Virus record (IMG/VR): IMGVR_UViG_3300021255_003103
Location: 108,954 to 128,716 of that record
Source: a virus
Taxonomy: Duplodnaviria > Heunggongvirae > Uroviricota > Caudoviricetes
Direction: 5' to 3' (one strand)
DNA: 19,763 nt
Below are positions 406 to 19,763 of this stretch, piece by piece. The position numbers were made by a program, and so were the translations under genes. The stretch's first letter is position 1. Each line of letters starts with the position of its first letter. The notes beneath the pieces were generated by a model. The model was not told the DNA's origin, searched no databases, and worked only from the letters and a program-made list of their open reading frames with translations.

Positions 406-1569
406 ATGAAAAAGATAACTGAAGCAAAAGCAAAAGTAAAATTTCAAATTCCTGAAAATTCAGTAAATTATATTAGTGCAGCTGAATTGAAGAAATATCT
501 TGAAGTTACAGATAGATTCATATCTGCAGAAACAAAAGAACTTATTAATTGGCTTATTGTTAATAATGATTCATATATTTCAGATCTTTCTAATGATGAA
601 GATGAAAATGCATTAGCTGGTTTCTATAAAGCTGGTGTACCTGAAAAGGATAATCTTAAGGAACTTTATAAATTACTAGGCACAATTATTAAAGCCGGAA
701 AAACAATGGAAATTCCAGTGTTTCAAACAAAAAGTGATTTTGAAGGAATAATTAATAAGAAAATTGCACCTGATGAAGTAATACTTGATTTGTCTACTGA
801 AGCAGGTCGTAATGCTACTGCTAAGAAATACGAAGCTCTTGTTCATATGATGGCAAGACAATGGAATGGTAAACTTAATCTTTCATATAATGATCTTCTT
901 AGTGTTTGTTACGAAGGACTTGCATATGCAATGAATACTTATGGAAAGAAAAATAAGAAATCAAAAGCTACTGATGAAGCAGTAAAAGGATATACATTTG
1001 GTCAATATGCTGCTTATTGTATTCGTAATCATATAACTGGCTGGGGTGTTGCTGACTCACATCTAGTGCATATTCCTAATTCACAGCAAAAGAAAGAACG
1101 TGAAGAAAAGGGACATAATACTCGTAACTTGTCAATATCTGGTGACAAGTCAGTAGGACATAGTGATGATGAGGGAAGTAAGACAATGTTTGATTTCATG
1201 GGTTCATCAACTGACGTAGAAGATGGAGTAAACGCCGAAGATCGTAAGAAACTTTGGGGTGATGTATGGAAAATTCTTTCAAAAGAATTTGACGAAAAGA
1301 CATTAGATATTTGGTGTAGTTATTGGGGTGCATATGATCATAAGAAACTTCAAAATAAAGAAATTGCAAAGAAATATAATGTTGCAAATTCAAATGTAAC
1401 ATATTATTGTCAGAAGGTCAATCAATTTATTAAGAAAAATAAAAAGATTCATGATATGTTTGTAGAATTATATGAATTACTTAAAGAGTCTATTAACGAC
1501 AAGGATCGTGAATCTTCATCAATGGGTAGAATGGTGACAAGTACTGAAAATATATATAATGAAGAATAA
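406..1569 (+). CDS. Phage RNA polymerase sigma70-family factor with extra N-terminal domain
   Basis: Region 2-like DLLSVCYEGLAYAMNTY...FGQYAAYCIRNHI..ADSHLVHIP; region 3-like SISGDKSVGHSDDEGSKTMFDF; region 4 HTH LQNKEIAKKYNVANSNVTYY; correct order and spacing versus RpoD/RpoS-type consensus. N-terminus MKKITE|A. Confidence 0.85.
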   Translation: MKKITEAKAKVKFQIPENSVNYISAAELKKYLEVTDRFISAETKELINWLIVNNDSYISDLSNDEDENALAGFYKAGVPEKDNLKELYKLLGTIIKAGKTMEIPVFQTKSDFEGIINKKIAPDEVILDLSTEAGRNATAKKYEALVHMMARQWNGKLNLSYNDLLSVCYEGLAYAMNTYGKKNKKSKATDEAVKGYTFGQYAAYCIRNHITGWGVADSHLVHIPNSQQKKEREEKGHNTRNLSISGDKSVGHSDDEGSKTMFDFMGSSTDVEDGVNAEDRKKLWGDVWKILSKEFDEKTLDIWCSYWGAYDHKKLQNKEIAKKYNVANSNVTYYCQKVNQFIKKNKKIHDMFVELYELLKESINDKDRESSSMGRMVTSTENIYNEE

Positions 1570-1856
1570 TGAAAGATATTAAAGAATTTATAAATGAAAG
1601 TTCTAATGCTTGGAAATATTTTTCAAGCGTTAGTAATTCAAGTAATTCCAGTATTAAATTATCTGGTCTTGAAAATAAAGATGCAAAATGGTTATATATT
1701 GATATAAATAACCAAATGATTACACCTTATACTGAAAATGATGTTAAACAAGCAACTAAAGATTTAGAAGATAATTATCTTGAAGAGGAATTACGTAAAT
1801 TAAAAATTGGTGATTCTTATAATGATGAAGGCAATATATATTTAAGAATAAAATAA
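1569..1856 (+). CDS. Leader-tagged hypothetical protein (putative internal head protein), 95 aa
   Basis: N-terminus MKDIKEFINE|SS; TAATG coupling to the sigma gene. Confidence 0.8.
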   Translation: MKDIKEFINESSNAWKYFSSVSNSSNSSIKLSGLENKDAKWLYIDINNQMITPYTENDVKQATKDLEDNYLEEELRKLKIGDSYNDEGNIYLRIK

Positions 1857-1868
1857 ATTTAGTAAAAT

Positions 1869-2249
1869 ATGAAAAATATTACAACATATATTAATGAATC
1901 TAATATAAATCATACAATATTCAATGCTTGTATGGAATTAGATAATAATGAGAATATATATAAAACTATATATTGGCCATTAGCACAGAATCTTATTAAG
2001 ATACATAAGTCTGGTGATTTTAATATTGAAACACTTGAAAAATCAGCGTTAGTATCAAAATTAGCATCTGCAACATTGAAAGCTGCAAAAGCAGGAACAT
2101 TATCTTCTGAAGATAGAAAACGTCTTTATAAGTTTATTGTTGGTAATCTTCTTAAAACAATAAGTAATGAAGGTGAAGAATTAACAAAAGAAGAAGAGGA
2201 TTATATGATTGAATGGGATTATAATAATTCAGATAAGTGTGGATGGTAA
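1869..2249 (+). CDS. Leader-tagged hypothetical protein, 126 aa
   Basis: N-terminus MKNITTYINE|SN; helical-looking body, no recognised family. Confidence 0.8.
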   Translation: MKNITTYINESNINHTIFNACMELDNNENIYKTIYWPLAQNLIKIHKSGDFNIETLEKSALVSKLASATLKAAKAGTLSSEDRKRLYKFIVGNLLKTISNEGEELTKEEEDYMIEWDYNNSDKCGW

Positions 2250-2260
2250 ATATATTATAA

Positions 2261-2476
2261 ATGCAAGATATTATTGAATCTATAAAGAAAACTAATTATT
2301 CTGAAATTCATGATGTTAAATGTACTTCAGAATATAAAATTGAACGCAAAGAATGCAGAATTACCTTTAAAAAAGGTGAACATTATACAGCTTCAAAAAT
2401 AAATAATAATTGGTGGCTTATTGAACAATTTGGTGTTCCAGCAAAAGACTTTAAAAAATATTTTAAAGATATATAA
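2261..2476 (+). CDS. Hypothetical protein, 71 aa, possible short leader
   Basis: N-terminus MQDIIE|S (6-residue variant); fills the gap between tagged genes. Confidence 0.7.
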   Translation: MQDIIESIKKTNYSEIHDVKCTSEYKIERKECRITFKKGEHYTASKINNNWWLIEQFGVPAKDFKKYFKDI

Positions 2477-2763
2477 TGAAACGTTTATACAAATAATTAC
2501 TGAAAATACACTGGTGAACATAAAGACAATTCATTCAAAGAAAAGATACAATATTCTAAGAAAGACTTTGACAAATTGGTAGAACTTTGGAGATATGATA
2601 AACTTCCTAAAGAAGTCATGATTCAAGTCCTTATGGCAAAGATACTAAATTTGTACTTATATATTTGATAAATCACTCACGAAAACAAATACAACATATT
2701 ACTTCATATGATATCAAGAATTAGATATTAATGACAGATGATATAAAATTATTTGAAAATTAA
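2476..2763 (+). pseudogene. Decayed paralog of 9288..9584
   Basis: Aligns along its length to 9288..9584 (e.g. shared AATATTCTAAGAAAGACTTTGACAAAT); two -1 and one +2 frameshifts, GAG>TAG and an earlier terminal TAA. Confidence 0.9.
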
Positions 2764-2765
2764 AA

Positions 2766-3104
2766 ATGAAATCTATAGTTAATTTTATAAATGAACAGCA
2801 AGATTGGTGGAGTGGAAAAGATGCTCAATTAATTGATGAAAAAACATTACTTCAGTTTGCTAATAAAGCTTTAAAAAATACTAAACTTTATGCATCAGAT
2901 TTGCAAGATGAGCTTTCACAATATGAAGATATAGATGAATTAGATAATGCATGGGAAAACAACGAATTAAAATATTGTAAGTTTGAAGATGAACTTTCTA
3001 ATTTATTAAGTAATGATACAAAATATAGTGGAAAAGAAGGAGACATTTGTGATCGTGTTTGGATTCATGCTTGGGATTTACTAGATGACCTTATTGAATT
3101 ATAA
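2766..3104 (+). CDS. Leader-tagged acidic hypothetical protein, 112 aa
   Basis: N-terminus MKSIVNFINE|QQ; 26 D/E versus 11 K/R. Confidence 0.8.
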   Translation: MKSIVNFINEQQDWWSGKDAQLIDEKTLLQFANKALKNTKLYASDLQDELSQYEDIDELDNAWENNELKYCKFEDELSNLLSNDTKYSGKEGDICDRVWIHAWDLLDDLIEL

Positions 3105-3123
3105 AAATAATGTATTTATATAA

Positions 3124-3645
3124 ATGAAATCATTTACACAATATATTAAAGAATCAGTAGAAGGCTATCGTTTAAATGATGTAGAAGCAACATATATCGT
3201 TCAGCCAGAAGAATTAGTATTACAAGCTCCAGAAACATTTCAAGAATCTGATATTCAGCAATATATGGATGATATGTGGCTTAACAAATTGCCTTCATCA
3301 CAAGATTACTCAGATAAATTTTTTGGAAAAAATAATGACAGTATATCTGATGCTCATTTTGAATATGATACATTTGAACATATTGATATTGAACCAAAAG
3401 AATATATAGAATGGGATTCAAAATATGATGTTAAGAAAACTAATGATGATATAACATTAGAATACTTCAAGATTAAAAATCTTAAATATATTATATCTTT
3501 TGATAGATTTGATATGGTTGATGTGACTGATGATACTGTTAAACAAAAACTTATTGATGTGTTTAAAGCAGCTGAATCTTCAAAAGAAAATGAATATCCA
3601 ATTGAAATAATGTTTGATGAAGATTCATTAGAATATAGAAAATAA
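3124..3645 (+). CDS. Leader-tagged acidic hypothetical protein, 173 aa
   Basis: N-terminus MKSFTQYIKE|SV, the closest match here to T4 MKTYQEFIAE. Confidence 0.8.
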   Translation: MKSFTQYIKESVEGYRLNDVEATYIVQPEELVLQAPETFQESDIQQYMDDMWLNKLPSSQDYSDKFFGKNNDSISDAHFEYDTFEHIDIEPKEYIEWDSKYDVKKTNDDITLEYFKIKNLKYIISFDRFDMVDVTDDTVKQKLIDVFKAAESSKENEYPIEIMFDEDSLEYRK

Positions 3646-3664
3646 AAAAATTTAAATATTATAT

Positions 3665-4183
3665 ATGAAAAATCTTAAAGATATATTAAGTAATAATATT
3701 ATTGAATCATTTAATAATACTGAAGAAGATTTTGATAGAATGGCACAAGGATTATTAAGATCAGCGAAAGCTTCAAAAATTAATCCTTTAGATTCTAAAG
3801 TATTAGCAAAATGCGCAGGATATATTATTGAAGCGTGGATTAAATTCGTTATTCAAATGCATGCGTGGAGACCAGGAGAACGCACATATAATGATGATGA
3901 CGATAATGAAAACTATGAACCACCAAAAATTTATGAGAATGGTGATACATGGTATGATTTTTCAATTCGTGGAGATAAATTTGAAATAAAATCATTTCAA
4001 AAAGGTAAGAAATATTCAAATACAAAATTAACTAAAGCACAAGTTGAACATAAAGATGAATTAATTTTTGTATTATGTGAATATGAAATTGAATCATCTG
4101 GTCCAAAATTAAATTTGGTTAATGTTGAATTTGTTCCTGGAAATGAAATGAAAATTTCTGGAAATAGAATGGTTAAAAAATAA
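3665..4183 (+). CDS. Leader-tagged PD-(D/E)xK (restriction endonuclease-like) nuclease, putative
   Basis: Extended leader MKNLKDILSNNIIE|S; GYIIEAWI helix Glu, WYDF...FEIKS core and LTKAQ downstream motif. Confidence 0.65.
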   Translation: MKNLKDILSNNIIESFNNTEEDFDRMAQGLLRSAKASKINPLDSKVLAKCAGYIIEAWIKFVIQMHAWRPGERTYNDDDDNENYEPPKIYENGDTWYDFSIRGDKFEIKSFQKGKKYSNTKLTKAQVEHKDELIFVLCEYEIESSGPKLNLVNVEFVPGNEMKISGNRMVKK

Positions 4184-4209
4184 AATTCAAATATTATATA
4201 AATTTAACT

Positions 4210-4239
4210 AAAGAGATTTAATTGATCAAATCTCTTTTT
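4210..4239 (+). terminator. Intrinsic terminator hairpin
   Basis: Perfect 10-bp stem AAAGAGATTT (4210-4219)/AAATCTCTTT (4228-4237), 8-nt loop, T run to 4239; 27 nt after the stop of 3665..4183. Confidence 0.7.
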
Positions 4240-4255
4240 CTATATTATATATAAT
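4238..4255 (+). promoter_or_regulatory. Candidate promoter core TTCTATATTATATATA
   Basis: Same CTATAT(A/T)-rich core as 219-236 and 13724-13736, directly after a terminator and upstream of 4292. Confidence 0.35.
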
Positions 4256-4291
4256 TAAATAAATTTATTTTTAATAAAACATTTATTGTTT

Positions 4292-4804
4292 ATGAAAGAC
4301 ATTAAAAATTTTATTAATGAATCATTACATAACAGTGATTGGCTATCTAATGCAAAGAATAATGAAGAGCCTTTTGTTAAAGCTGCTTTAGAAGAAGAAG
4401 GATGGAAAGTAACACCTGGCTCACAAAATGAAGATTTTCAAGGAATTGATTTAAAGGTTGAAAAACAAGAAACTGATGACCAATATGGTGGTAAGTTTAA
4501 TATTGATGTAAAGGGAAGTTCATCAAAAAACAAGCAATCAAAAAGTTTCTTATTTACATGTAAGAGTGCATCAGGAAAAGAATATCCATATTCTGATAAT
4601 CACTTTATTGCATTCATTAACTATGTTGACAAAACTATTTATTTAGCTGCTGATAAGGATGTTAAAGAATTAGCAAGTAAATATAAGGAATATGATAGTA
4701 AGTTTGGAGATGAATCTAAATATGTATTACTCCCAAAGAAAGAAGTACAAAAACTTGGTAGAACAATCAATCCATCTGATAAAATCAAAAATTTATTGAA
4801 ATAA
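4292..4804 (+). CDS. Leader-tagged PD-(D/E)xK-family nuclease, putative
   Basis: Start moved from TTG 4286 to ATG 4292 giving MKDIKNFINE|SL; NEEPFVKAALEEEGWKV...EDFQGIDLKV...NIDVKG fits E...(P)D...DxK. Confidence 0.7.
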   Translation: MKDIKNFINESLHNSDWLSNAKNNEEPFVKAALEEEGWKVTPGSQNEDFQGIDLKVEKQETDDQYGGKFNIDVKGSSSKNKQSKSFLFTCKSASGKEYPYSDNHFIAFINYVDKTIYLAADKDVKELASKYKEYDSKFGDESKYVLLPKKEVQKLGRTINPSDKIKNLLK

Positions 4805-4807
4805 TTT

Positions 4808-5062
4808 ATGAAAGAATTACAAAAATTTATTAGTGAATCAAGTAATACATGGGCACTAGATAAAGAGGATGAAAAAATTATATTTGGTGCTTTAGAAATT
4901 ATTGCTAAATTAGTTAAAGAGGATGAATTTTGTAAAGCATTAAATGTTGAACGATATAAATTTGATGAACTTTGGGAAGATTTTGGTGATCAATTAAATA
5001 AAAATGAAAATAAAGGAGTATCTACAATATCAAAAGCATTAAATAAAATTATAGATCAATAA
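4808..5062 (+). CDS. Leader-tagged hypothetical protein, 84 aa
   Basis: N-terminus MKELQKFISE|SS. Confidence 0.8.
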   Translation: MKELQKFISESSNTWALDKEDEKIIFGALEIIAKLVKEDEFCKALNVERYKFDELWEDFGDQLNKNENKGVSTISKALNKIIDQ

Positions 5063-5292
5063 TGAAATCATTAAGTGAAATTATAAATGAAGGTAAATCA
5101 AGTATACTTTATGTATATTTTGAATTTGGTACAAGCGGATGGGGAGCTAAGCCTATCATAAGAATCAGTGAAGATCTTAAGGAATTATTAGATAGAGGAG
5201 GAAATTCTTGGGGATTTCATATTGCTGATGGAAGATTTCATGATGATTATATAAAGAGGCTTAAGAAAAAAATTAAAGAGCTTAAAAAATGA
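5062..5292 (+). CDS. Leader-tagged hypothetical protein, 76 aa
   Basis: N-terminus MKSLSEIINE|GK; TAATG coupling. Confidence 0.8.
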   Translation: MKSLSEIINEGKSSILYVYFEFGTSGWGAKPIIRISEDLKELLDRGGNSWGFHIADGRFHDDYIKRLKKKIKELKK

Positions 5293-5642
5293 AAGACATA
5301 AAGAACTACATTTTAGAAGCAAAAAGTATTCATTCTCAATGGAAGAAACTTATTAAGAAACTTTCAAATGAAGAAATAGAATGGATTAAGAAATATGCAA
5401 TTGATGAAAAGCACAATCGAATCTACACTATGGAGGAATTAGAGCAACGTATGTGGAAAGGAGATTTGAAAGATCAATGGGATAAAATGAACAATTATAT
5501 TGTTGACAATATTCTTACAAAAGAGAATGGCATAACACAACGTGATGTTATTCATGAATATAGTCTTGCAACAACAGGAAAACAATCTATGATTGAAGTA
5601 ATTGCACAAACTATTTATATGATAAATATGGAATTAGATTAG
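5289..5642 (+). CDS. Leader-tagged hypothetical protein, 117 aa
   Basis: N-terminus MKDIKNYILE|AK; ATGA coupling. Confidence 0.8.
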   Translation: MKDIKNYILEAKSIHSQWKKLIKKLSNEEIEWIKKYAIDEKHNRIYTMEELEQRMWKGDLKDQWDKMNNYIVDNILTKENGITQRDVIHEYSLATTGKQSMIEVIAQTIYMINMELD

Positions 5643-5646
5643 TAAT

Positions 5647-6324
5647 ATGAAAGATATAATATCTTATATCAGAGAATCTGTAGAGATTGAAAAGTCTAAT
5701 AAGTTTGGTGAAAACAGTGATTATGTTACTGTTACATTAGTTCGTCGTGAAAATTTAGATTTGTCTTCAATTTCTAAAGAAGACTTTATTAAGTTTATTT
5801 TAGAGGATTATAATAAAGCAGTAAAAGAATACGATAATATTATTAAGCCATTAAATGATAAAAGACGCAAGCGATTAATTGAACAAGATGTTAACATTGC
5901 AATTAAGTTTGCGGAAAAGAAATGGAAGACTGAAAAGAAACGTGCTGAATATGTTGAAAACATTCGAAAGAATGCTGAAGCTAAAGAATGGTATATGGAT
6001 AAGGCAGATAGAATATTTTTTGACTGCCAACCAGATAAAGGAAATATGGGTATTGATCAAAATTGTATATTTGATAAAAACACAAATGAAAAACAATTAG
6101 ATCGTGCATATGATATATTAATGGAATCAAAATATTTTAAGAAGGGCACTGGTTGGGCATTTAAGTATGATGCAAGTTCAAAAGATAATTTATATTACTC
6201 TTTTAGACCTTATGTAGATATTTTACTTAATGAATCTGATAGAGCTGAACAAAGGCGTGATGAAGAAACATTAAATAAGTCAATAGAAAACTTTTATAAG
6301 AATACAAATTATTGGGGTGATTGA
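5647..6324 (+). CDS. Leader-tagged hypothetical protein, 225 aa
   Basis: N-terminus MKDIISYIRE|SV; basic central helix (KRRKRL...KKWKTEKKR); ends FYKNTNYWGD. Confidence 0.8.
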   Translation: MKDIISYIRESVEIEKSNKFGENSDYVTVTLVRRENLDLSSISKEDFIKFILEDYNKAVKEYDNIIKPLNDKRRKRLIEQDVNIAIKFAEKKWKTEKKRAEYVENIRKNAEAKEWYMDKADRIFFDCQPDKGNMGIDQNCIFDKNTNEKQLDRAYDILMESKYFKKGTGWAFKYDASSKDNLYYSFRPYVDILLNESDRAEQRRDEETLNKSIENFYKNTNYWGD

Positions 6325-6348
6325 TTTATAAATATGCAATTAGATTAA

Positions 6349-6555
6349 ATGGAAGACATAAATTATATTTTAGAATCAACACTAGATACAATGTATATTA
6401 TTGGATTTGATTATAATGAAGAAAATTCAATAGCTTCTGGATTATCTTTTGCTGAAGACTATATAGATGGCAAATATAAAGTAAATCTTTATATTGATAC
6501 AGAGAATAGTGATTATATAATATTTAAAAAATATAATGTATTTTTACAATTATGA
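6349..6555 (+). CDS. Internally deleted paralog of 6552..6851 (possibly non-functional)
   Basis: MEDI-NYILE|ST, then aligns to the C-terminal half of the next gene (GFDY.EENS..SGLSF..DY...KY.VNLYID.EN.DYI..K.YNVFLQ); lacks 31 residues. Confidence 0.8.
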   Translation: MEDINYILESTLDTMYIIGFDYNEENSIASGLSFAEDYIDGKYKVNLYIDTENSDYIIFKKYNVFLQL

Positions 6556-6851
6556 AAGACATAAAAAATTATATTTTAGAATCAACCCAAGATGAAGATC
6601 TCCAAGAAGAAGTTGGATTAGCTCTTAAGAAATTTGGTAATGTAAAACATGGATTCAAAGCTGCTAAAAAACAAGACATTATAGATGCAATGTACAAGCT
6701 TGGATTTGACTATGATGAAGAAAACTCAACCGTATCAGGATTGTCATTCACCGGAGATTATATGAATGATAAATATGAAGTAAATCTTTATATTGATAAG
6801 GAGAATGGTGATTATATAACACTTAAAAATTATAATGTATTTTTACAATAA
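6552..6851 (+). CDS. Leader-tagged hypothetical protein, 99 aa
   Basis: N-terminus MKDIKNYILE|ST. Confidence 0.85.
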   Translation: MKDIKNYILESTQDEDLQEEVGLALKKFGNVKHGFKAAKKQDIIDAMYKLGFDYDEENSTVSGLSFTGDYMNDKYEVNLYIDKENGDYITLKNYNVFLQ

Positions 6852-7096
6852 TGAAAGGTATAAATGAATATTTGATAAAAGAATCTGCTGATGAAGTAGA
6901 ACTTGTTGTACTTTCACCAGAAGAACTTCAAAAGGTTTTAGAATTTGTTAAAGGTAATGAAGACAAAGGTCTTTGCATAAGAGATACTCGTAACACTGAT
7001 GATGAATGGTATCAAATAGATGCTTGTTATTATGATGAGAGAAATGACAAAGGTCCTCGTAATTGGCCTTGGAAAAAAATAATAAGAAAAGACTAA
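6851..7096 (+). CDS. Leader-tagged hypothetical protein, 81 aa
   Basis: N-terminus MKGINEYLIKE|SA (11-residue variant shared with 8932). Confidence 0.8.
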   Translation: MKGINEYLIKESADEVELVVLSPEELQKVLEFVKGNEDKGLCIRDTRNTDDEWYQIDACYYDERNDKGPRNWPWKKIIRKD

Positions 7097-7097
7097 A

Positions 7098-7346
7098 ATG
7101 AAAAATATAAAAGATGTTATATTGAATGAAGCTGGCAAAGACTACTCAGATTATAAAGAGGAAGTAGCTGACCAATTATATGATATTTATTACAATCAAG
7201 GATTAAAAAGGTTTGTAAATGCAATGATTCATTTTATTGAAGATGGTCATTATACAAAGACTGGATGGGAATCTGATGAATTGAAAAAACTTCTTCCAAA
7301 ACTTAAGTCATTAAGGCAAGAACCAAAAGGCTTTAAATCAAAATAA
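7098..7346 (+). CDS. Leader-tagged hypothetical protein, 82 aa, paralog A
   Basis: N-terminus MKNIKDVILNE|AG; 77/82 aa identical to 8671..8919. Confidence 0.9.
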   Translation: MKNIKDVILNEAGKDYSDYKEEVADQLYDIYYNQGLKRFVNAMIHFIEDGHYTKTGWESDELKKLLPKLKSLRQEPKGFKSK

Positions 7347-7357
7347 ATGATAATATA

Positions 7358-7601
7358 ATAAAAGACTTAATTAGAACTATAACAGAATCAAAATTTAGTC
7401 CTTATTGTGGCATAAAAGATAAAGAGATTAATTCAATTAATGGTAAATTGCTGCTTAATTGTAGTGGTGATGACGATTTTAGTATTAATATATAATGATT
7501 ACGGTGATACGTATGCCAAATATCACTTATTAATAAGTACTGGACATAAAGGTGGAATATGTAGACCTAAATATTGTCCTGAATGCTGTAAAAAAATATA
7601 G
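7358..7601 (+). pseudogene. Disrupted leader-tagged Cys-rich (Zn-ribbon-like) gene
   Basis: ATA in the expected start position gives IKDLIRTITE|SKFSPYCG...; a frameshift in a TA run near 7488-7495 joins it to YNDYGDTYAKYHLLISTGHKGGICRPKYCPECCKKI-TAG. Confidence 0.7.
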
Positions 7602-7611
7602 TAAATAATTT

Positions 7612-8058
7612 ATGAAAGACATTAAAGAATATATAACAGAAGCTGTTAAATTTAATTATTGGGAAGATGTAATTCAATTTCCAGGTTATGAATTAAAAGT
7701 TCCAAAAAAATATATTAAACCAGTTCAAACAAAATATTATCGTGAAGATTTTTTAACTGATTATTTTGGATGGCTTAATCAATGGCTTGATAAGAATATT
7801 AAAAAGATAGTTCAAATAGTAATTAAAGAAAATAAAGATTTTCCAGATAAAATTTCAATTAAATTACCAAGTGAATTAGGTGGTAGTTTAAAATTTGATT
7901 GGGATTGTGGGTGGACAGATGGTGTACCTCGTGGATCTCTTCGTGATGTTGAATTAAAAGTAAATAATGTTTCTCCATCATCAATGAGTCATAGTGCATT
8001 TTATCAAGCTCAAGAAGATTTAGAACAATTTAAATTAAATAATCCAATTAAATTTTAA
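7612..8058 (+). CDS. Leader-tagged hypothetical protein, 148 aa
   Basis: N-terminus MKDIKEYITE|AV. Confidence 0.85.
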   Translation: MKDIKEYITEAVKFNYWEDVIQFPGYELKVPKKYIKPVQTKYYREDFLTDYFGWLNQWLDKNIKKIVQIVIKENKDFPDKISIKLPSELGGSLKFDWDCGWTDGVPRGSLRDVELKVNNVSPSSMSHSAFYQAQEDLEQFKLNNPIKF

Positions 8059-8061
8059 AAT

Positions 8062-8448
8062 ATGAAAGACATCAAATAATATATAATAGAAGCAGCTGGT
8101 AGTGAAATCGAGTTTCAAGGTCAGAAATTACAATTAAATCACATTATTAAAGCTAATGTACATAATGACATATATCAAGCAACTCGTGTAAAAGAGTTTA
8201 CTGATAATATGTGGAAAGATCTTAAGAAACAAGGTTGCACACACTTTATTTGTTTCCCACCTCATTATACAAACCAGGAAACGAAAAAGTTGATGAATTT
8301 CAGATAAAATGTTTATTAAAGGAAAGAAGATACTAGATACATACAAGGTGGTGAACATTATGCTATGTATGATACAAAGACCCATGAATGCGTAAATAGA
8401 GATATTATGGAAAAAAATAAAGCCTATAAAATTATAAGATTTGAATGA
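8062..8448 (+). pseudogene. Disrupted leader-tagged gene
   Basis: ATG AAA GAC ATC AAA TAA TAT ATA ATA GAA GCA = MKDIK*YIIE|A; frame then open to about 8307; further frame breaks; last segment ...YIQGGEHYAMYDTKTHECVNRDIMEKNKAYKIIRFE-TGA ends at 8448. Confidence 0.8.
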
Positions 8449-8449
8449 T

Positions 8450-8671
8450 ATGAAAGATATAAACAGATTTATTAATGAAAACGAAATACAGTTTCCACAT
8501 TGGAAAGATGAATATTGGTCTGAAAATTTAATCCATCATTTAGATTCTCTTAATAGAGAAAAGAATGAATTAGCAGAAATAATTAGTTGGTTTATTGTTA
8601 AAGCTCTTGGAGAAACTCCAAAATCTTCTTATAAAGATTTACGTAAACAAATAGATACTGCATTAGTATAA
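8450..8671 (+). CDS. Leader-tagged hypothetical protein, 73 aa
   Basis: Start moved from TTG 8441 to ATG 8450 giving MKDINRFINE|NE. Confidence 0.8.
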   Translation: MKDINRFINENEIQFPHWKDEYWSENLIHHLDSLNREKNELAEIISWFIVKALGETPKSSYKDLRKQIDTALV

Positions 8672-8919
8672 TGAAAAACATAAAAGATGTTATATTGAAT
8701 GAAGCAGGTAAAGACTATTCCGACTATAAATCTGAAGTAGTTGACCAATTATATGATATTTATTATAATCAAGGATTGAAAAGATTTGTAAATGCAATGA
8801 TTCATTTTATTGAGGACGGTCATTATGAAAAGACCGATTGGGAGTCAATTGAATTGAAGAAACTTCTTCCAAAACTTAAGTCATTAAGACAAGAACCAAA
8901 AGGCTTTAAATCAAAATAA
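8671..8919 (+). CDS. Leader-tagged hypothetical protein, 82 aa, paralog B
   Basis: MKNIKDVILNE|AG; near-identical to 7098..7346. Confidence 0.9.
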   Translation: MKNIKDVILNEAGKDYSDYKSEVVDQLYDIYYNQGLKRFVNAMIHFIEDGHYEKTDWESIELKKLLPKLKSLRQEPKGFKSK

Positions 8920-8931
8920 ATTGATAATATA

Positions 8932-9288
8932 ATGGAAAATCTTAAGGAATATTTAATTAAAGAATCTGAAGAAGAAGTATTAGTTGTTACACATGATGAA
9001 GACGATGATCTAATATGTGTAAGTGCATTTTGGTATTGGCTTCGTGAAGCAGGATTCAAACCAAGTGGAAGACGACATAATTGGTCAAAACTTGATAAGA
9101 AATATGGTAATAAATGTAGTATCATAGATGATAAAGTTGATGAAGCTATTGAATTTATTAACAAAGGTACTTCAGGATTCAAGACTAAGAATATGACAAT
9201 TAAAGTAAAATCTGAAAATGGATCTTGTAAAGTTTCATCAGATGGTGGTGATATAGCTCATATAAAATACACTAAAGACAAAGCATAA
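8932..9288 (+). CDS. Leader-tagged hypothetical protein, 118 aa
   Basis: N-terminus MENLKEYLIKE|SE. Confidence 0.8.
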   Translation: MENLKEYLIKESEEEVLVVTHDEDDDLICVSAFWYWLREAGFKPSGRRHNWSKLDKKYGNKCSIIDDKVDEAIEFINKGTSGFKTKNMTIKVKSENGSCKVSSDGGDIAHIKYTKDKA

Positions 9289-9584
9289 TGAAGAATATAA
9301 ATAATTTTATTACTGAAAAATATGCAGGCGAACGAGAAGGAAGTTCATTCAAAGATAAAGTAAAATATTCTAAGAAAGACTTTGACAAATGGGTAGAACT
9401 TTGGAGAGATGACAAACTTTCTAAAGAAGTCATGATAAGCCCTTATGGTAAAGATACTGAACTCGTATTAATATATTGGGTAAACCACTCACAAAAACAA
9501 GTACAACATATCGCATCATATAATGTAAAAGATGAGATATTGATGACAGATGATATAAAGTTATTTGGAAATGAAAAACATTAA
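9288..9584 (+). CDS. Leader-tagged hypothetical protein, 98 aa (intact copy of the 2476 pseudogene)
   Basis: N-terminus MKNINNFITE|KY. Confidence 0.85.
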   Translation: MKNINNFITEKYAGEREGSSFKDKVKYSKKDFDKWVELWRDDKLSKEVMISPYGKDTELVLIYWVNHSQKQVQHIASYNVKDEILMTDDIKLFGNEKH

Positions 9585-10458
9585 TTCATATATATTTGAA
9601 TCTCGTGAAATAGAGACTAATTCAAATAAACAACGTCGTAAGGAACTTGAAAAATGGTTGAAACATAAAAACTATGATGATTATGTTGATACATTAAATA
9701 AGATGCTTGAAGATCCAAAAGCAAAGACTTTACTTGAAGATGGATTTGGGGGAGAGCTTGGCGATACTAAACTTACATTTTCTGTTAAAGAAATTCCTGT
9801 ATCTCAATTGATGCCAACACAATCTGAGATAGATTTAGATAAGTCGCTTAAGCATGCATTAACTAAGAAAGAATCATTTGAAAAGACATTTACAAATCCT
9901 ATTGAAATAAATAAACCAATTGTTACATTCAGACAAAATTATGTAATTGATGGGCATCATACTTGGTTACAGGCAATAGCTCTTAATCCAAAAGGAAAAA
10001 TATTGGCATTCAATTATGATGGTGATATTTCTCCTATTCAGATGCTTAAAGCTGTACAAGGAACCATAGCTTCAGTTAAGGCAGACAATAATAACAATAG
10101 TGGAAAACTTCCATCAAATTCTGTAGATGGTCCTAATTTTTTTGATAAATCATTTGATGAAAAGAAAATTAGAAAATATATTAAAGATACGTTAAATGAA
10201 AATCTTATTGATTTATATATTGATAAGATTAAAGAATGCATGAATTATGATACGACAGTAGATTGGCTTACTGAACGTCTTTTAGATATTAAGTCAAATA
10301 ATTATCCATTTGATTCTGCTCCTGGTCGTGAAAACATGCCACAATTATTTAAAGGTGGCACTGATGAAGCTGATAAGAAAACATCATTACCAAATAAAGA
10401 AGGATCTGCAATGAACAAACTTAAAGATAATAAATTTATGAAGTCAGCAGTAAAATAA
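9571..10458 (+). CDS. Leader-tagged ParB/sulfiredoxin-like domain protein
   Basis: Start moved from TTG 9565 to ATG 9571 giving MKNINSYIFE|SR; IPVSQLMPTQSEID...KPIVT...YVIDGHHTWLQA fits the ParB/Srx core, with T in place of the usual R of DGHHR. Confidence 0.75.
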   Translation: MKNINSYIFESREIETNSNKQRRKELEKWLKHKNYDDYVDTLNKMLEDPKAKTLLEDGFGGELGDTKLTFSVKEIPVSQLMPTQSEIDLDKSLKHALTKKESFEKTFTNPIEINKPIVTFRQNYVIDGHHTWLQAIALNPKGKILAFNYDGDISPIQMLKAVQGTIASVKADNNNNSGKLPSNSVDGPNFFDKSFDEKKIRKYIKDTLNENLIDLYIDKIKECMNYDTTVDWLTERLLDIKSNNYPFDSAPGRENMPQLFKGGTDEADKKTSLPNKEGSAMNKLKDNKFMKSAVK

Positions 10459-10488
10459 ATTATTGTTAAATATATATATTTATGTTAA

Positions 10489-13062
10489 ATGGAATCTTTA
10501 GAAATACAACAAAATCCAGCTTTAATTGAAAATTTAAAACCTTATGATTTTTATAAATTCTATAATTATTTAAAAAATAATGAAACAGAATTTTTAAGTT
10601 TACGATTAAAAGGATGGATTCAAGTAACCAATGCATATGCAAGTGTTATGAATTATTTCAATGATAATGAAAAATTTCCAGAACTTGATGTAACATGCAC
10701 TGGTGAATATTATATTGAATTTGAAGATCCTATTACTAAAGAATGTGCTGCAAATGTATTTGGAGATAGAGTAGGCTTAACTCAGACCAGAGCAAAAATA
10801 TTCAATGGTTCAGAAATAACTAGTTCAAAAATGTCTCCTTATAATCAAATGGAATTATTTAATGAATTTGGATATTTTATTAATTTGACTCAAATACCAT
10901 ATCAATCTTTTTATAATTTTAAAAAATTAAAAAGCATACAATTACCTGAAAGTTTAACTACATTAAAAGAACAGGCATTTTATAATTGTGAATCACTTGA
11001 AAATTTTGGTCATTTAGAAAATCTTAGAACAATTGAACATCATGCATTAAGGCATACAAAATTACATGATATTCATTGTGAAAATATTTCTGTTCTTCAA
11101 AATAATACCTTAAGTGATAATACTGAATTAGAATTTGCTCATTTAGATGGAACATTTACACAATTAACACATGAAACATTCCGTGACGATAAAAATTTAA
11201 AATCAGTTACTGGTTTAAGTAATGTTACACAAATTAATTTTAAATGTTTCTTTGGATGTAATTCATTGACACATATAGATAATATTGATAAAATAACAAG
11301 AATAAATCAAGACGCCTTTAGCTATTGTTATGCATTACCGCGTCTTAATACAGATTCATTAACATATATTGACTCTTGGGGATTCTTCAATTGTACATCT
11401 TTAGAATATGTAAATACAGCAAACGTTACACATCTTGGAAAAGAGTGTTTTATGAAGTGTGCGGCATTAGAAGATTTAGATTTGTCAAATGTATTGACTA
11501 TTGATACTGGTGTTTTTTCATATTCAGGAATAAAGAATATCAATTTACCGAAGTTGACTACACCTATAAGTAATATAGGAAGTATGATTAGAGATTCACA
11601 AGTAGAAACAGTAACATTTAATGAAGAATCTTCTGGATGGCAGACACCTTATGTAATACCTAATAATTTTGCAAATAATGCAATTAAATTAAGACAAATA
11701 AACTTAGGTAATTGTTATCAGATTAATTCAGATGCATTTGCAGGATGTAGTTCATTAATATCTATTGGAGAACAACCTGAAACACCTATATTAACAAAAT
11801 TAAATGGTACATCAATATTTAATGGCTGTACAAATTTAGATCATATTGATATATCATTAGTTGCTGAAATACCAGGTTCAACTTTTTATAGATGTAAACA
11901 TTTAAAAAGTCTTGGTAATAATAATGTATTGTCTAATGTTGAATATATAAGACATGATGCATTTCACGAATTTGGTACTTCAGGGGAAGAAGGATTAGGT
12001 GAAATTTCATTTCCAAATTGTAGATTAATCGAAAATGCAGTATTTAAGGATAGCTACGGTATAACAAAAATAAACTTTGGAAATCTTCAAGAAATCAAAT
12101 ATGAAGCATTTTGTCGTTGCAATGATCTTGAATATATTACTGGACTAGATAATGTTACAATATGTAGACATGATGTATTTTTGCAATGTACAAAACTTAA
12201 AGAAGTTGAAATGCTTAATGTTGAACAATTTATACATGATGGAAGGGGTGGTAGTAATCAATTTTATGGATGCACAGGATTGGAAAATGTTAATTTACCT
12301 AAACTTAAAACAGTTAGTGGTGATCGAACATTTAGCAATTGTAACATAACTGGATTATTAAATTTGCCATTACTTGAAGATACGGGTGGTCAGTACGCAT
12401 TTCAGTCAGCAAAAATAAAGAAAATCAATTTACATAATTGTAAGAAATTATATCAAAATCAATTTAATAATAATACTTTACTTGAAGAAATTGATTTATC
12501 ATCATGTGAACAATTTACAGGTGGTTCAGTATTTTATAATTGTACTGCATTACAAAGTATTGAATTACCTGCATTAACTGGAGATATTCCTCTTAATTGT
12601 TTCAGATATTGTAATTCGCTTACAAGTATTACATTTGGTACTGGTAAGATTAGATTAGTAGATGAATCTATTAGCGATAACCCAGAGTTAAAAACAATTA
12701 ATTTAAATAATTGTACTTATATTGGTGTACATGCAATGATGAACTGTACTAAGCTTGAAACAATTGGAGAATTCAGCGATGAATTAACATATATAGGAAT
12801 GGGAGCGTTTGAAAACTGTTCTAAATTAACAGGTAATATTACAATTCCTGCAAGTGTTACAACTATAGGATATAAAGCATTCTATAATTGTGGATCTATT
12901 ACATCAATTACAATGTTAGCGACAACTCCGCCACAAATGGATAATGAATCATTTAATGGAGCATTAACATATCCTATTTATGTACCTGCAGGTTCTGTTG
13001 ATGCATATAAAACAGCAAATAATTGGAAGAATATTGCTAGTAGAATATTTGCAGCATCATAA
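10489..13062 (+). CDS. BspA-type (TpLRR/LRR_5) leucine-rich repeat protein, 857 aa
   Basis: Roughly 30 repeats of about 23 aa (LxxIxxxAFxxCxxL); N-cap IEFEDPITKECAANVFGD...FNEFGYF and C-cap TPP...IYVPAGSVDAYKTANNW resemble Bacteroidales BspA proteins; no signal peptide or leader seen. Confidence 0.92.
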   Translation: MESLEIQQNPALIENLKPYDFYKFYNYLKNNETEFLSLRLKGWIQVTNAYASVMNYFNDNEKFPELDVTCTGEYYIEFEDPITKECAANVFGDRVGLTQTRAKIFNGSEITSSKMSPYNQMELFNEFGYFINLTQIPYQSFYNFKKLKSIQLPESLTTLKEQAFYNCESLENFGHLENLRTIEHHALRHTKLHDIHCENISVLQNNTLSDNTELEFAHLDGTFTQLTHETFRDDKNLKSVTGLSNVTQINFKCFFGCNSLTHIDNIDKITRINQDAFSYCYALPRLNTDSLTYIDSWGFFNCTSLEYVNTANVTHLGKECFMKCAALEDLDLSNVLTIDTGVFSYSGIKNINLPKLTTPISNIGSMIRDSQVETVTFNEESSGWQTPYVIPNNFANNAIKLRQINLGNCYQINSDAFAGCSSLISIGEQPETPILTKLNGTSIFNGCTNLDHIDISLVAEIPGSTFYRCKHLKSLGNNNVLSNVEYIRHDAFHEFGTSGEEGLGEISFPNCRLIENAVFKDSYGITKINFGNLQEIKYEAFCRCNDLEYITGLDNVTICRHDVFLQCTKLKEVEMLNVEQFIHDGRGGSNQFYGCTGLENVNLPKLKTVSGDRTFSNCNITGLLNLPLLEDTGGQYAFQSAKIKKINLHNCKKLYQNQFNNNTLLEEIDLSSCEQFTGGSVFYNCTALQSIELPALTGDIPLNCFRYCNSLTSITFGTGKIRLVDESISDNPELKTINLNNCTYIGVHAMMNCTKLETIGEFSDELTYIGMGAFENCSKLTGNITIPASVTTIGYKAFYNCGSITSITMLATTPPQMDNESFNGALTYPIYVPAGSVDAYKTANNWKNIASRIFAAS

Positions 13063-13078
13063 ATATATTTTATTTAAC

Positions 13079-13390
13079 ATGATAAATATAGTTGAATATT
13101 TAAAGACAAATGATAAAGAATTCAATATTGATGGATTTAAGATAATTGACATGGGAGATGACTCAGTTGTTTCTAATTGGGGTGAAGGTGATTTATTAAA
13201 AGCTATCAATGAATTAAAGAAACTTAAAGAAGAAGCAAATAATAAAGAATATTGGTTAATTGCAACAACTAATAATGGATTCTATGATTTAGATGATCCT
13301 GGTAATTATTTAGTATTGAAATCTTATGAATATAATGAAAAGGATGATTATTATGGAATCAATCCAAAATATAATGAATATTTAAAATAA
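13079..13390 (+). CDS. Hypothetical protein, 103 aa, degenerate leader
   Basis: Start moved from 12980 (82-nt overlap with the LRR gene) to ATG 13079: MINIVEYLKTND, leader-like but without the cleavage Glu. Confidence 0.75.
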   Translation: MINIVEYLKTNDKEFNIDGFKIIDMGDDSVVSNWGEGDLLKAINELKKLKEEANNKEYWLIATTNNGFYDLDDPGNYLVLKSYEYNEKDDYYGINPKYNEYLK

Positions 13391-13393
13391 ATT

Positions 13394-13687
13394 ATGAAAG
13401 ATATTAAAAATTTTATTTTAGAATCATCTCAAGATGACCTTGAAGATATGACAAATGATTTATCAGAATGGTGGGATGAACATTGTGTTGAAGATGGATA
13501 TAATAGCCGTCATGAATTTATAGATAATATGAAAGCAATGGCAGATAAAGAAAATGATCCATTGGTTGATGACGCTTTTGATTATCTTGAAAATGAATGC
13601 GAATGGGATCATAAAGATATTGAACGCTGGAAAGATGATCTTATAGAAGTATTATCACAATGGGCAAAAGATCAATTAAGTTATTAA
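13394..13687 (+). CDS. Leader-tagged highly acidic protein, 97 aa; last member of the array
   Basis: MKDIKNFILE|SS; 30 D/E, 9 K/R, 5 Trp. Confidence 0.85.
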   Translation: MKDIKNFILESSQDDLEDMTNDLSEWWDEHCVEDGYNSRHEFIDNMKAMADKENDPLVDDAFDYLENECEWDHKDIERWKDDLIEVLSQWAKDQLSY

Positions 13688-13794: not shown

Positions 13795-14232
13795 ATGATG
13801 AATATGTATACAACAGAGAGTTTTTGTGCCGGGTTAATTCAGTCAATTATCAATTATATGACTGAGAATAAAGTCGATGTATTTCCTCTTGAGTTTCTTG
13901 CAAATTGAAATGATTATAGTTCATGTGAGGCTGCTCGAAATTTTTACAATCATTGCATCAAGTATTTCACTGTTGTAAACGGAGAACTTCATGTTCATCT
14001 TCATTATAATTCAACGAATAAAGACTATGAAAATATTGTTTCAGAAAAACCTTGGTCTTGGCCCGACACTGAACATTATTCATTTCATTCTGCTGATTTA
14101 GTTGCTCTTATTCAGATAGCTTACGATACAATTGGTTCATCTCATTTTAAGGGTCGCGGAGTTGATAGCTGGGATTCTTCTGAAATTGATGAGCTTGAGG
14201 CAGAATATGAAGCTCGTCGAAACGAAGTTTAA
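13795..14232 (+). pseudogene. 145-codon gene with one in-frame TGA (13906-13908)
   Basis: MMNMYTTESFCAGLIQSIINYMTENKVDVFPLEFLAN*NDYSSCEAARNFYNH...DELEAEYEARRNEV-TAA; single frame; missed by the ORF track. Confidence 0.8.
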
Positions 14233-14255: not shown

Positions 14256-14300
14256 ATAGACAATATTTAGAATTTTATCTAAGTATTGTCTATATTTTTT
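14256..14300 (+). terminator. Intrinsic terminator hairpin
   Basis: 16-bp stem ATAGACAATATTTAGA (14256-14271)/TCTAAGTATTGTCTAT (14278-14293) with one G-U pair, 6-nt loop, then ATTTTTT. Confidence 0.8.
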
Positions 14301-15923: not shown

Positions 15924-16235
15924 ATGAAAAAACCTATAAGATACATAATAAGTAAATTTACATATCATGGAGCAAATCATCTAAATAATGATACTGGTTT
16001 ATATGAGATGAAAATTGAAGATAGATATCATATTTATCGTAGAGGAAATATTTTTAAGAAAAGACTTCATGTTGTTGGAGATTGGCTTTGCGATAGTCAA
16101 GGCGGTACTTGGTGTTTTCAAAATAATTTTAAATCTATTGAACAAGCGATATCTTATATAAAAGGCTGGCATATTGAAACTTATGGAATGAATAGAAATT
16201 ATATTGTTGAAAATTATGAACAACCGCAAGAATAG
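15924..16235 (+). CDS. Hypothetical protein, 103 aa
   Basis: Clean ORF. Confidence 0.75.
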   Translation: MKKPIRYIISKFTYHGANHLNNDTGLYEMKIEDRYHIYRRGNIFKKRLHVVGDWLCDSQGGTWCFQNNFKSIEQAISYIKGWHIETYGMNRNYIVENYEQPQE

Positions 16236-16638
16236 ACAAGAACAAATAAGAGCTGCTGCAAAATATACATCAGCAAAAAATGTTGAATCATTTGAAGGTG
16301 GAGCAAAATGGGCTGACTATAATCCTAATTGGCAAGAAGGATATCCTCAAAGAGAAGAAAATAAATATGGTCTTCCAAGATTATATCTATGTCAGATATT
16401 AATACTTGATATGACATTTGGATATCGTTATTCATATAGAGTTGGATTTATAAATGAACAAGGAAAATGGAATATTGAAAAAGAAGGATTTATAAAAGTT
16501 GTAAGATATCTTAATATATATTGTGATGAATCAGAATCTCAATTAATACAAAAGGACATACAAGATTTTAATAATAGTCAAAATAAGGAGCAAGAAGAAA
16601 ATGAAGATAATGGAGAAAATTACAAAGCTGCTGCATAA
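16216..16638 (+). CDS. Hypothetical phage protein with FEGGAKWADYNPNW motif
   Basis: ATG 16216 preferred to TTG 16204; from memory FxxGAxWAxxxP-type motifs occur in small phage proteins (not verified). Confidence 0.7.
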   Translation: MNNRKNRQEQIRAAAKYTSAKNVESFEGGAKWADYNPNWQEGYPQREENKYGLPRLYLCQILILDMTFGYRYSYRVGFINEQGKWNIEKEGFIKVVRYLNIYCDESESQLIQKDIQDFNNSQNKEQEENEDNGENYKAAA

Positions 16639-17074
16639 TAATGTATCAAAAAAATGGAACACTCTAAAGAAAGGTGATAAAATTTACTTATTGATTCCTA
16701 TTGAATATGAAGATACTTATAAATATACATATCAAGAATCTGAGATAATAAATATTAAAGAATATAATTTAATATGTAATGTTAGATTTAAGTATAATGA
16801 AAATTCTGGCAAACGTAAACGTGTTAATTTAGCAGTAAATAAATTAAAATATGATTTACCATATATTGCATTAAAACGTAATACAGAATTTGCAAAAGAA
16901 TATATGCCTGTATTTGGAGATATTATTGTAACATTTAATAATGATAAAGAGTACATTAATAACATATATGCTGAATTGATCACAAATAAAATTAAGGAAC
17001 AAGAAGAAATTGTTGCTAAAGAAAAGGATACATTAAGTAAGCTTTATTCATTACAATATAATAAAATAGTATGA
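16601..17074 (+). CDS. Hypothetical protein (KKGDKIY beta-rich N-terminus plus C-terminal coiled coil)
   Basis: Clean ORF; start uncertain (16601 or 16610), overlaps the upstream gene. Confidence 0.75.
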   Translation: MKIMEKITKLLHNNVSKKWNTLKKGDKIYLLIPIEYEDTYKYTYQESEIINIKEYNLICNVRFKYNENSGKRKRVNLAVNKLKYDLPYIALKRNTEFAKEYMPVFGDIIVTFNNDKEYINNIYAELITNKIKEQEEIVAKEKDTLSKLYSLQYNKIV

Positions 17075-17535
17075 GTAAATTTGCAAAAGATATCAAAATA
17101 AACGATATATTATGGGCAATTAGTGAAGGTGATAAACCACAATTACTTCCATTAATTATTACTAATATTAATATAAAGAAAATATTATGGACATGCTATT
17201 ATAATCTTACTGTTAGGCTTCCTGATGGTTCAGATAGATTTATATCATTGTTTGATACTGGAGAAAGACGAGATTATAATATTCCTTTATTAACAGATTT
17301 ATTAAGCACATTAGATTATAGTAATTATGAAGAATTGAAAAAATCAGAGATAAATATAATGGCGTGTTTTGATAAAGATGCTCTTTGGAAACATTATGTT
17401 AATGGATTAGAAAGCAGTATGAAATCAATTGAAGAAGTAATTGAAAGAGGAAAACAGAATTTAAATGAATTGAGTAATAAATTAAAATATATTAAGAAAC
17501 AACATGATAATATTCAAGAAGGGCAATTTATTTGA
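17071..17535 (+). CDS. Hypothetical protein (KINDILW N-terminus plus C-terminal coiled coil)
   Basis: ATGA-coupled; architecture like 16601. Confidence 0.8.
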   Translation: MSKFAKDIKINDILWAISEGDKPQLLPLIITNINIKKILWTCYYNLTVRLPDGSDRFISLFDTGERRDYNIPLLTDLLSTLDYSNYEELKKSEINIMACFDKDALWKHYVNGLESSMKSIEEVIERGKQNLNELSNKLKYIKKQHDNIQEGQFI

Positions 17536-19656: not shown

Positions 19657-19763
19657 AATATAATACATATAATATTTTTTATTCAAGAATTTCATAAAAA
19701 TATAATACATATAATATTTTTTATTCAAGAATTTCATAAAAATATAATACATATAATATTTTT
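19657..19763 (+). repeat. 42-bp perfect tandem repeat, 2 full copies plus a partial third cut by the window edge
   Basis: AATATAATACATATAATATTTTTTATTCAAGAATTTCATAAA at 19657-19698 and 19699-19740, first 23 nt again at 19741-19763. Confidence 0.95.

Follow-up and report, generated by a model that had tools for sequence, protein, structure and literature searches.

In bacteriophage T4, the capsid targeting sequence (CTS) MKTYQEFIAE is cut once, by the prohead protease gp21, and is sufficient for packaging (PMC8442874; PMC3012670), and T4 packages foreign proteins, e.g., green fluorescent protein, when these are fused to the CTS (PMC3012670). The T4 internal proteins (Ips) are described as highly basic (PMC8442874), and Ip1, Ip2 and Ip3 each inhibit a distinct GmrSD type IV restriction enzyme (PMC12373910). 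At least 10 Ips have been reported across related T-even phages; these proteins have the leader alone in common, and their genes lie in polymorphic loci (PMC12373910). Here, we describe a locus in a stretch of 19,763 nucleotides from a virus of the Caudoviricetes (IMG/VR record IMGVR_UViG_3300021255_003103, positions 108,954 to 128,716; this whole stretch is referred to as the window) in which nearly all open reading frames (ORFs) between positions 1569 and 13687 open with one common short peptide, hereafter the tag. We consider it probable that the locus, which would be a greatly expanded form of the known T4 internal-protein system, makes use of T4-type capsid targeting and cleavage to load a plastic set of effectors. 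In the literature searched, we found no description of such arrays in huge or uncultured phages.

The tag shares with the T4 CTS M1, K2, an aromatic residue at position 7, I8 and E10, followed by a small residue. As in the T4 internal proteins (Ip1, Ip2, Ip3 and Alt), a leader of ∼10 residues ending in [IL]-x-E is carried by unrelated proteins, and the window genome encodes an S77 protease, a scaffold and a gp23-type capsid protein, as does T4. However, T4 has three Ips, whereas the window locus contains ∼22 tagged genes and the related genome G001 contains 36. Moreover, the window cargos are mostly acidic or neutral, the G001 cargos include a kinase, a HAD hydrolase, a nucleotidyltransferase and a ferritin-like protein, and the protease of the window phage is fused to the scaffold. 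Unlike the T-even phages, this is a jumbo phage (∼245 to 376 kb) from rumen and gut and related to the jumbo phages of Bacteroidota. The jumbo phages phiKZ, 201phi2-1 and SPN3US also have many packaged ejection proteins and proteases that cut after Glu in [small]-x-E (PMC5694885). Their propeptides, however, are mostly 80 to 270 residues long, with paralogous families and an S80-type protease, while the array has leaders of 10 to 15 residues, unrelated cargos and a protease with a stronger S77 match, and thus is not of the phiKZ-like type. Encapsulins provide an analogy only: a short cargo-loading peptide brings unrelated enzymes, ferritin-like ones included, into an HK97-fold shell, but this peptide is C-terminal, uncleaved and without a delivery function. 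The parallel lies in a tagged ferritin-like protein of G001 (positions 120811-121317, L024:811-1317, minus strand; Pfam Ferritin, E 5e-16).

The window genome is a 245-kb scaffold from sheep rumen, for which a 128.6-kb contig is a second assembly. The window has a GC content of ∼26% and is densely filled with plus-strand ORFs. A six-frame regular-expression scan together with N-terminal listings of the window ORFs identified 21 intact plus-strand ORFs with the tag M-K-x-[ILF]-x-x-[FY]-I-x-E-[SA] or variants differing by one residue in length, as counted in an earlier note on this DNA. The canonical 11-mer, M-K-x-[ILF]-x-x-[FYI]-I-x-E-[SAGQNK], opens 15 of these (starts at 1569, 1869, 2766, 3124, 4292, 4808, 5062, 5289, 5647, 6552, 7612, 8450, 9288, 9571 and 13394), four tags have one extra residue ahead of the Glu (6851, 8932, 7098 and 8671), one is a residue shorter (6349) and one is a long variant ending in IIES (3665, MKNLKDILSNNIIES). 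Two further plus-strand ORFs have degenerate tags (2261, MQDIIESIKKT; 13079, MINIVEYLKTN). Beyond ORF starts, the six-frame scan gave one weak internal match on the plus strand and one match on the minus strand. The tag was not found on the sigma-like gene at 406, the leucine-rich-repeat (LRR) gene at 10489, the 13 ORFs from 14323 on or 19 upstream genes. Altogether, 22 of the 23 array genes but not one among 32 flanking genes are tagged (Fisher p = 1.8e-14), in keeping with the claim that the leader is no generic start bias. In a position-specific scoring matrix (PSSM) of the leader, built from the window tags with a threshold score of 12 or more, the Pfam-identified protease, capsid, sheath, helicase, MazG, TnpB and topoisomerase genes in the flanks of the window genome all score −9 or lower. 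Because the replication, structural and transposase genes of the flanks are untagged, the motif is not equally common on replication genes. After removal of the tag, the only paralogue pairs at the BLAST level are 6349/6552 and 7098/8671, and the description of the cargos as otherwise mostly unrelated holds at that level. A megablast comparison of the whole window with 50,697 phage records gave no match. The features of the array are as follows, with lengths in amino acids (aa) and with L003 denoting the corresponding locus of a relative.

1569-1856, plus strand: tagged ORF, 95 aa, MKDIKEFINES; L003 homologue at another array position
1869-2249, plus strand: tagged ORF, 126 aa, MKNITTYINES; L003 orthologue 88% identical
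2261-2476, plus strand: ORF, 71 aa, degenerate tag MQDIIESIKKT; L003 orthologue starts MKDIVESIKKT
2504-2760, plus strand: pseudogene, copy of the 9288 gene (70-73% identity by tblastn, over two frames) with a frameshift, a stop and a destroyed tag
2766-3104, plus strand: tagged ORF, 112 aa, acidic (net charge −15), MKSIVNFINEQ
3124-3645, plus strand: tagged ORF, 173 aa, very acidic (net charge −22), MKSFTQYIKES
3665-4183, plus strand: ORF, 172 aa, long tag variant MKNLKDILSNNIIES
4265-4273, plus strand: promoter-like motif TTATTTTTA, 27 nt ahead of the ATG at 4292
4292-4804, plus strand: tagged ORF, 170 aa, MKDIKNFINES
4808-5062, plus strand: tagged ORF, 84 aa, MKELQKFISES
5062-5292, plus strand: tagged ORF, 76 aa, MKSLSEIINEG
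5289-5642, plus strand: tagged ORF, 117 aa, MKDIKNYILEA
5647-6324, plus strand: tagged ORF, 225 aa, MKDIISYIRES
6349-6555, plus strand: tagged ORF, 68 aa, short tag MEDINYILES, paralogue of the 6552 gene
6552-6851, plus strand: tagged ORF, 99 aa, MKDIKNYILES
6851-7096, plus strand: tagged ORF, 81 aa, MKGINEYLIKES
7098-7346, plus strand: tagged ORF, 82 aa, MKNIKDVILNEA, paralogue of the 8671 gene (93%)
7612-8058, plus strand: tagged ORF, 148 aa, MKDIKEYITEA
8062-8445, plus strand: pseudogene, three in-frame stops, one within the tag (MKDIK, stop, YIIEA); tblastn to an intact 128-aa tagged L003 orthologue
8450-8671, plus strand: tagged ORF, 73 aa, MKDINRFINEN
8671-8919, plus strand: tagged ORF, 82 aa, MKNIKDVILNEA
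8932-9288, plus strand: tagged ORF, 118 aa, MENLKEYLIKES
9288-9584, plus strand: tagged ORF, 98 aa, MKNINNFITEK
9571-10458, plus strand: tagged ORF, 295 aa, MKNINSYIFES, predicted ParB/Srx fold, invariant DGHHRW
10489-13062, plus strand: untagged BspA-type LRR protein inside the array, 857 aa; Pfam LRR_5, E 6e-90
13079-13390, plus strand: ORF, 103 aa, tag-like start without the Glu (MINIVEYLKTN); conserved in L003
13394-13687, plus strand: last tagged ORF, 97 aa, very acidic (net charge −21), MKDIKNFILES

The earlier note had listed three pseudogenes. Two of these (2504-2760 and 8062-8445) stand on the basis of homology, while the third (7347-7611) found no confirmation. A recoded genetic code, as reported for related Lak phages, was considered as the source of the broken genes and rejected because each of TAA, TGA and TAG serves as the stop of normal ORFs, and the defects in the broken genes are TAA stops and a frameshift. 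The untagged LRR protein starts with MESLEIQQNPALIEN, and its L003 counterpart (L003:17199-19880) starts with MLRFFNES, which has a tag-like ending. A lone tagged gene (L007:18368-18925; 185 aa, MKDLKDIIYES) lies amid gyrase/topoisomerase-type genes ∼8 kb past the window end.

The earlier note had proposed to look for T4-type prohead protease and capsid genes, and both are present in the same genome ∼17 kb upstream of the array. First, a 578-aa protein, the product of L004:70-1806, contains within residues 1-200 a Peptidase_S77 domain (PF03420, E 7e-12), with the S77 match beating the S80 match (45.6 vs. 24.9 bits). His75 and Ser129 of this domain align to two positions that hold Ala in the T4 gp21 chain 5JBL, and we take these to be the mutated catalytic His85 and Ser140 of T4 gp21. 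Second, the C-terminal half of this protein is an acidic, helical, scaffold-like tail with a 12-residue repeat, which contains 11 [FYW]-[ILV]-x-E motifs (WITEE, WIVEE and others) compared to 1.2 expected from the proteome rate, and an additional KINES site. Third, the gene next to the protease-scaffold gene encodes a Gp23-family major capsid protein (PF07068, E 1.7e-27), the propeptide of which carries AAIHEIHES; in an alignment of six related phages (the window phage's own and five others), every sequence has the Glu of the first I-x-E, set in an [I/Y]-x-E context. The end of the tag, [FY]-I-x-E followed by [SA], matches the repeat motifs of the scaffold tail as well as the I-x-E of the capsid propeptide, and prohead proteases of this family (S77/S80) cleave after Glu in such motifs (PMC5694885).

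Selection acts on the tag peptide rather than on the tag DNA, as judged from two types of variation. The tag codons vary synonymously (ATT/ATA/ATC, GAT/GAC, TCA/TCT/AGT, and also TTT/TAT/TAC), with Ser encoded by both AGT and TCN, and no DNA conservation was detected in the 60 nt upstream of the tagged ORFs. For the 173-aa cargo at 3124, 120 homologues from metagenomes (73 to 86% identical overall) give a per-position entropy of 0 to 0.07 at M1, K2, I8 and E10, ∼1 at positions 4, 7 and 11, where two or three residues alternate, and 2.3 to 2.6 bits at positions 3, 5, 6 and 9, compared to a mean of 0.49 in the protein body. This pattern is the one expected of a short linear recognition and cleavage motif along one face of a helix. 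In two AlphaFold models, the tag forms an N-terminal helix that is separate from the rest of the protein (residues 4-10 or 4-12), and the stretch behind it has low confidence. With I8 and E10 nearly invariant and S or A at position 11, the leader ends, at the sequence level, in [I/L]-x-E and a small residue. A strong internal tag-like site was not found in the tagged cargos, and a single cut is therefore predicted, as for the T4 internal proteins.

To cover a whole genome, we used G001, an IMG/VR contig of 376,291 bp that is 98% complete by CheckV and that encodes a capsid protein 93% identical to that of the window genome, as a stand-in for the window genome. A strict DNA pattern of the tag gave 27 matches in G001 and none in a reversed control. 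The leader PSSM, a scan of the kind proposed earlier, identified 36 of ∼600 predicted N-termini (6%) compared to 2 of 1774 internal 11-mers starting with Met (p = 6e-20). The tagged genes are clustered at ∼44, 57, 120-135, 184-191, 229-235, 255, 272 and 366 kb, and the cluster at 229-235 kb is the counterpart of the window array. Thus, "about two dozen" tagged proteins is correct for the window locus and too low for the whole genome because further tagged loci exist. Four types of tagged protein in G001 have a Pfam match, i.e., an AAA_33 kinase, a ferritin-like protein, a HAD hydrolase and a Pol-beta nucleotidyltransferase, and the remainder have none. A 462-aa ORF of G001 (188014-189402) has a full internal tag, MKTINEYINEE, at residue 357, representing either two genes fused in frame or an in-frame junction tag.

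All window cargos are hydrophilic, 16 of 23 have an isoelectric point below 7, and three have a net charge of −15 to −22. Searches of Pfam and PHROGs left almost all of them without a match above threshold; weak matches (the DNA mimic Arn with E 0.047, SH3, SBDS and others) fell below the cut-off and were not used. The very acidic 173-aa cargo at 3124 is modeled as an alpha/beta domain with a predicted local distance difference test (pLDDT) score of 77. Because this fold has no convincing match in PDB or BFVD, the idea that the protein is a DNA mimic is neither supported nor excluded. The 295-aa cargo (9571-10458) belongs to a large family with 778 representatives in a library clustered at 50% identity, and its DGHHRW motif is invariant in 68 homologues. 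Its model (pLDDT 93.9) has as top PDB and Swiss-Prot fold matches the N-domains of ParB or Noc, with probabilities of up to 0.98-0.99 and low TM-scores, and the Pfam match to ParBc_2 is below threshold. On the basis of this model, the cargo is a ParB/Srx-fold protein. The nearest diverged homologues retain tag-like N-termini, while in remoter homologues the domain lies within untagged proteins of 600-1956 aa; the large homologues (929-1956 aa) contain no informative Pfam domains.

The content of the array changes rapidly between relatives. The sigma-like protein of L003 is 94% identical to that of the window, and the same flanking genes enclose 13 tagged genes that differ from the window array in order and cargos. 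Moreover, only 9 of the 23 window cargos have any homologue in the whole of G001 and 14 are absent, despite capsid proteins that are 93% identical. As judged from these comparisons, the array loci are polymorphic between close relatives, like the internal-protein loci of T-even phages. The DNA homology blocks shared by the window and L003 begin and end at tags, and from these breakpoint positions we infer that the tag-coding stretch may be a crossover point for cassette exchange. The lineage is common in metagenomes: one cargo has 787 homologue matches in a database clustered at 90% identity, of which the best 120 are at least 82% identical.

The capsid protein places the lineage with three Tenacibaculum phages (pT24, PTm1 and PTm5), an uncultured 462-kb phage, the Lak phages of Prevotella and Sphingomonas phage PAU. 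A search for the exact tag pattern gave no match in PTm1, Lak-C1 or PAU, only two matches in LR756500.1, both containing stops, and one match in pT24. The generic motif [FYWILVM]-[ILV]-x-E is more frequent at N-termini than internally in G001 (8.7% vs. 2.9%) and in pT24 (6.8% vs. 3.1%), and no such enrichment was seen in LR756500.1 or PTm1. The cultured phage pT24 (234 kb), with a capsid protein 34% identical, shares several features with the window phage: it has a gene annotated as "prohead core scaffold" with a protease-type N-terminus, ∼12 genes with a tag-like start (e.g., MRDIRDYIKES, MKDISVYINEK and MKSILEYVTES) and a capsid propeptide with ITES and ILES sites. Examples of its tag-like genes lie at 89992-90780, 92740-92994, 173362-173994 and 179862-180485 of LC168164.1. 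However, its tagged genes are fewer, scattered rather than arrayed and of a looser consensus, and it was published as a genome announcement.

The placement of a short DNA motif provides a lead, and no more than a lead, to when the tagged genes are expressed. In G001, 26 genes are preceded at a distance of 17-50 nt by TTATTTTTA, in most cases with TATATAA behind it. Among these genes are the protease-scaffold gene, two giant genes adjacent to it and several that are tagged or head an array; ahead of the capsid and sheath genes, the distances are 70 and 92 nt. Examples of TTATTTTTA(TATATAA) are at 212552, 214263, 216270 and 229255, sometimes right behind a hairpin. In the window, the motif precedes the sigma-like gene (at 309) and a tagged gene (at 4265). 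For this phage lineage, TTATTTTTA(TATATAA) is a promoter candidate, perhaps of the late type, and its placement hints at co-expression of tagged genes with head genes. Scans for generic sigma-70 promoters and terminators and for the motif TTTGAA-N17-TATATT gave results at chance level.

We suggest that, during prohead assembly, the leader, a short amphipathic helix with a flexible linker, would bring each tagged protein into a scaffold core built from the fused S77 protease-scaffold protein. The S77 protease would then cut after the Glu of [FY]-I-x-E, the mature protein would be kept in the head, and the mature cargo would enter the host along with the DNA. The locus would be an accessory cargo array with rapid turnover, in which cassettes are swapped between related phages with breakpoints at the tag-coding stretch, and most cargos would probably be early-acting host-takeover or counter-defence proteins. 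In a more far-reaching version, which we propose tentatively, each genome of the lineage would load at least three dozen different proteins (∼6% of the genes, mostly unknown proteins and enzymes) by means of one modular 11-residue tag, the coding stretch of which doubles as an in-frame cassette joint. Such a system would be integron-like, would serve virion-delivered counter-defence and takeover proteins and would be far larger than any described internal-protein set.

The T4-type capsid-targeting interpretation put forward in the earlier note was supported by every test possible on sequence data; nevertheless, several points weigh against it. The system is known from sequences alone, for the window phage and close relatives. 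The cargos are mostly acidic or neutral, whereas T4 internal proteins are highly basic. In addition, the total count of TTATTTTTA in G001 equals the chance expectation, leaving its promoter role putative. Finally, the nearest phages by capsid (LR756500.1, PTm1, Lak-C1 and PAU) are without tag enrichment, and the large expansion is therefore specific to this lineage.

Other explanations of the tag have to be weighed against the same observations. The leader could be a sorting or regulatory peptide with a role outside the capsid, i.e., a degron for timed destruction or a signal for targeting to the membrane or to an intracellular phage compartment. The short amphipathic N-terminal helix could suit other receptors, and its destination is read from sequence only. 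However, the invariant positions end in [ILV]-x-E and a small residue, which is the S77/S80 cleavage pattern (PMC5694885), and the same type of motif is repeated in the scaffold tail of the protease and conserved in the capsid propeptide. The tag also lacks the hydrophobic core of a signal peptide, and the cargos are all hydrophilic. We regard a role outside the capsid as unlikely.

Alternatively, the tagged proteins could be prohead residents and S77 substrates and yet function as accessory scaffold-core or filler proteins rather than as effectors delivered to the host. The resemblance of the tag to the scaffold repeat unit, the small size and unknown function of most cargos and the acidity of many of them, which is shared with scaffold proteins, all fit this idea. 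It is more difficult to reconcile with the absence of strong internal tag-like sites, by which the cargos would survive whole, with the tagged enzymes (AAA_33 kinase, HAD hydrolase and Pol-beta nucleotidyltransferase) and the ferritin-like protein of G001, and with the ParB/Srx-fold cargo of the window. The turnover of gene content is also far too quick for structural parts, and we find a filler function distinctly unlikely. Finally, the shared start could be a nucleic-acid feature without a peptide role, i.e., an A-rich initiation region in a host lacking Shine-Dalgarno sites or a mere recombination joint. This idea is favored by the breaks in homology at the tag between relatives, by the A/T-rich codons of the tag and by the lack of visible Shine-Dalgarno motifs. 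We nevertheless regard it as highly improbable: conservation is residue-specific with synonymous codon variation, including Ser by AGT and TCN, the tag combines hypervariable positions (3, 5, 6 and 9) with fixed ones (1, 2, 8 and 10), and 32 neighboring genes of the same genome lack the feature. A role in recombination can coexist with a role in targeting.

If the tag works as in T4, it would be a simple sequence marker by which proteins delivered ready-made into the host could be recognized from metagenomes alone. Known examples of this kind, such as T4 Ip1-3, are anti-restriction factors. Given the abundance of the lineage and the differences between the arrays of relatives, the tag would give a large, pre-sorted catalogue of candidate early effectors for Bacteroidota-type hosts, and it could serve as a packaging handle for engineering such phages. 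With about a dozen tag-like genes in the cultured relative pT24, the idea is directly testable.

Other features were observed in the surroundings of the array. Between the structural genes and the array, there are two IS605-type TnpB genes (L004:10998-12743 and 16170-17387), one of which is accompanied by a Y1 transposase gene. Downstream of the array, an untagged ORF (13795-14230) is broken by one in-frame stop. On a JGI contig of the same phage, a 145-aa gene is called in the gap matching this ORF (L008:5067-5504); judged by gene position, the stop may be a strain-level nonsense variant. A terminator-like hairpin with a 16-bp stem (14256-14293) follows this ORF. At the window end (19657-19763, on into L007:10929-11123), between a 294-aa gene and a second sigma-like gene, lies a perfect 42-bp tandem repeat, present in 4.6 copies in the longer scaffold. 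Each unit of the repeat has a promoter-like pair, TTGAAT-N18-TATATT, on the minus strand, and the repeat could be an iterated promoter or an iteron array.

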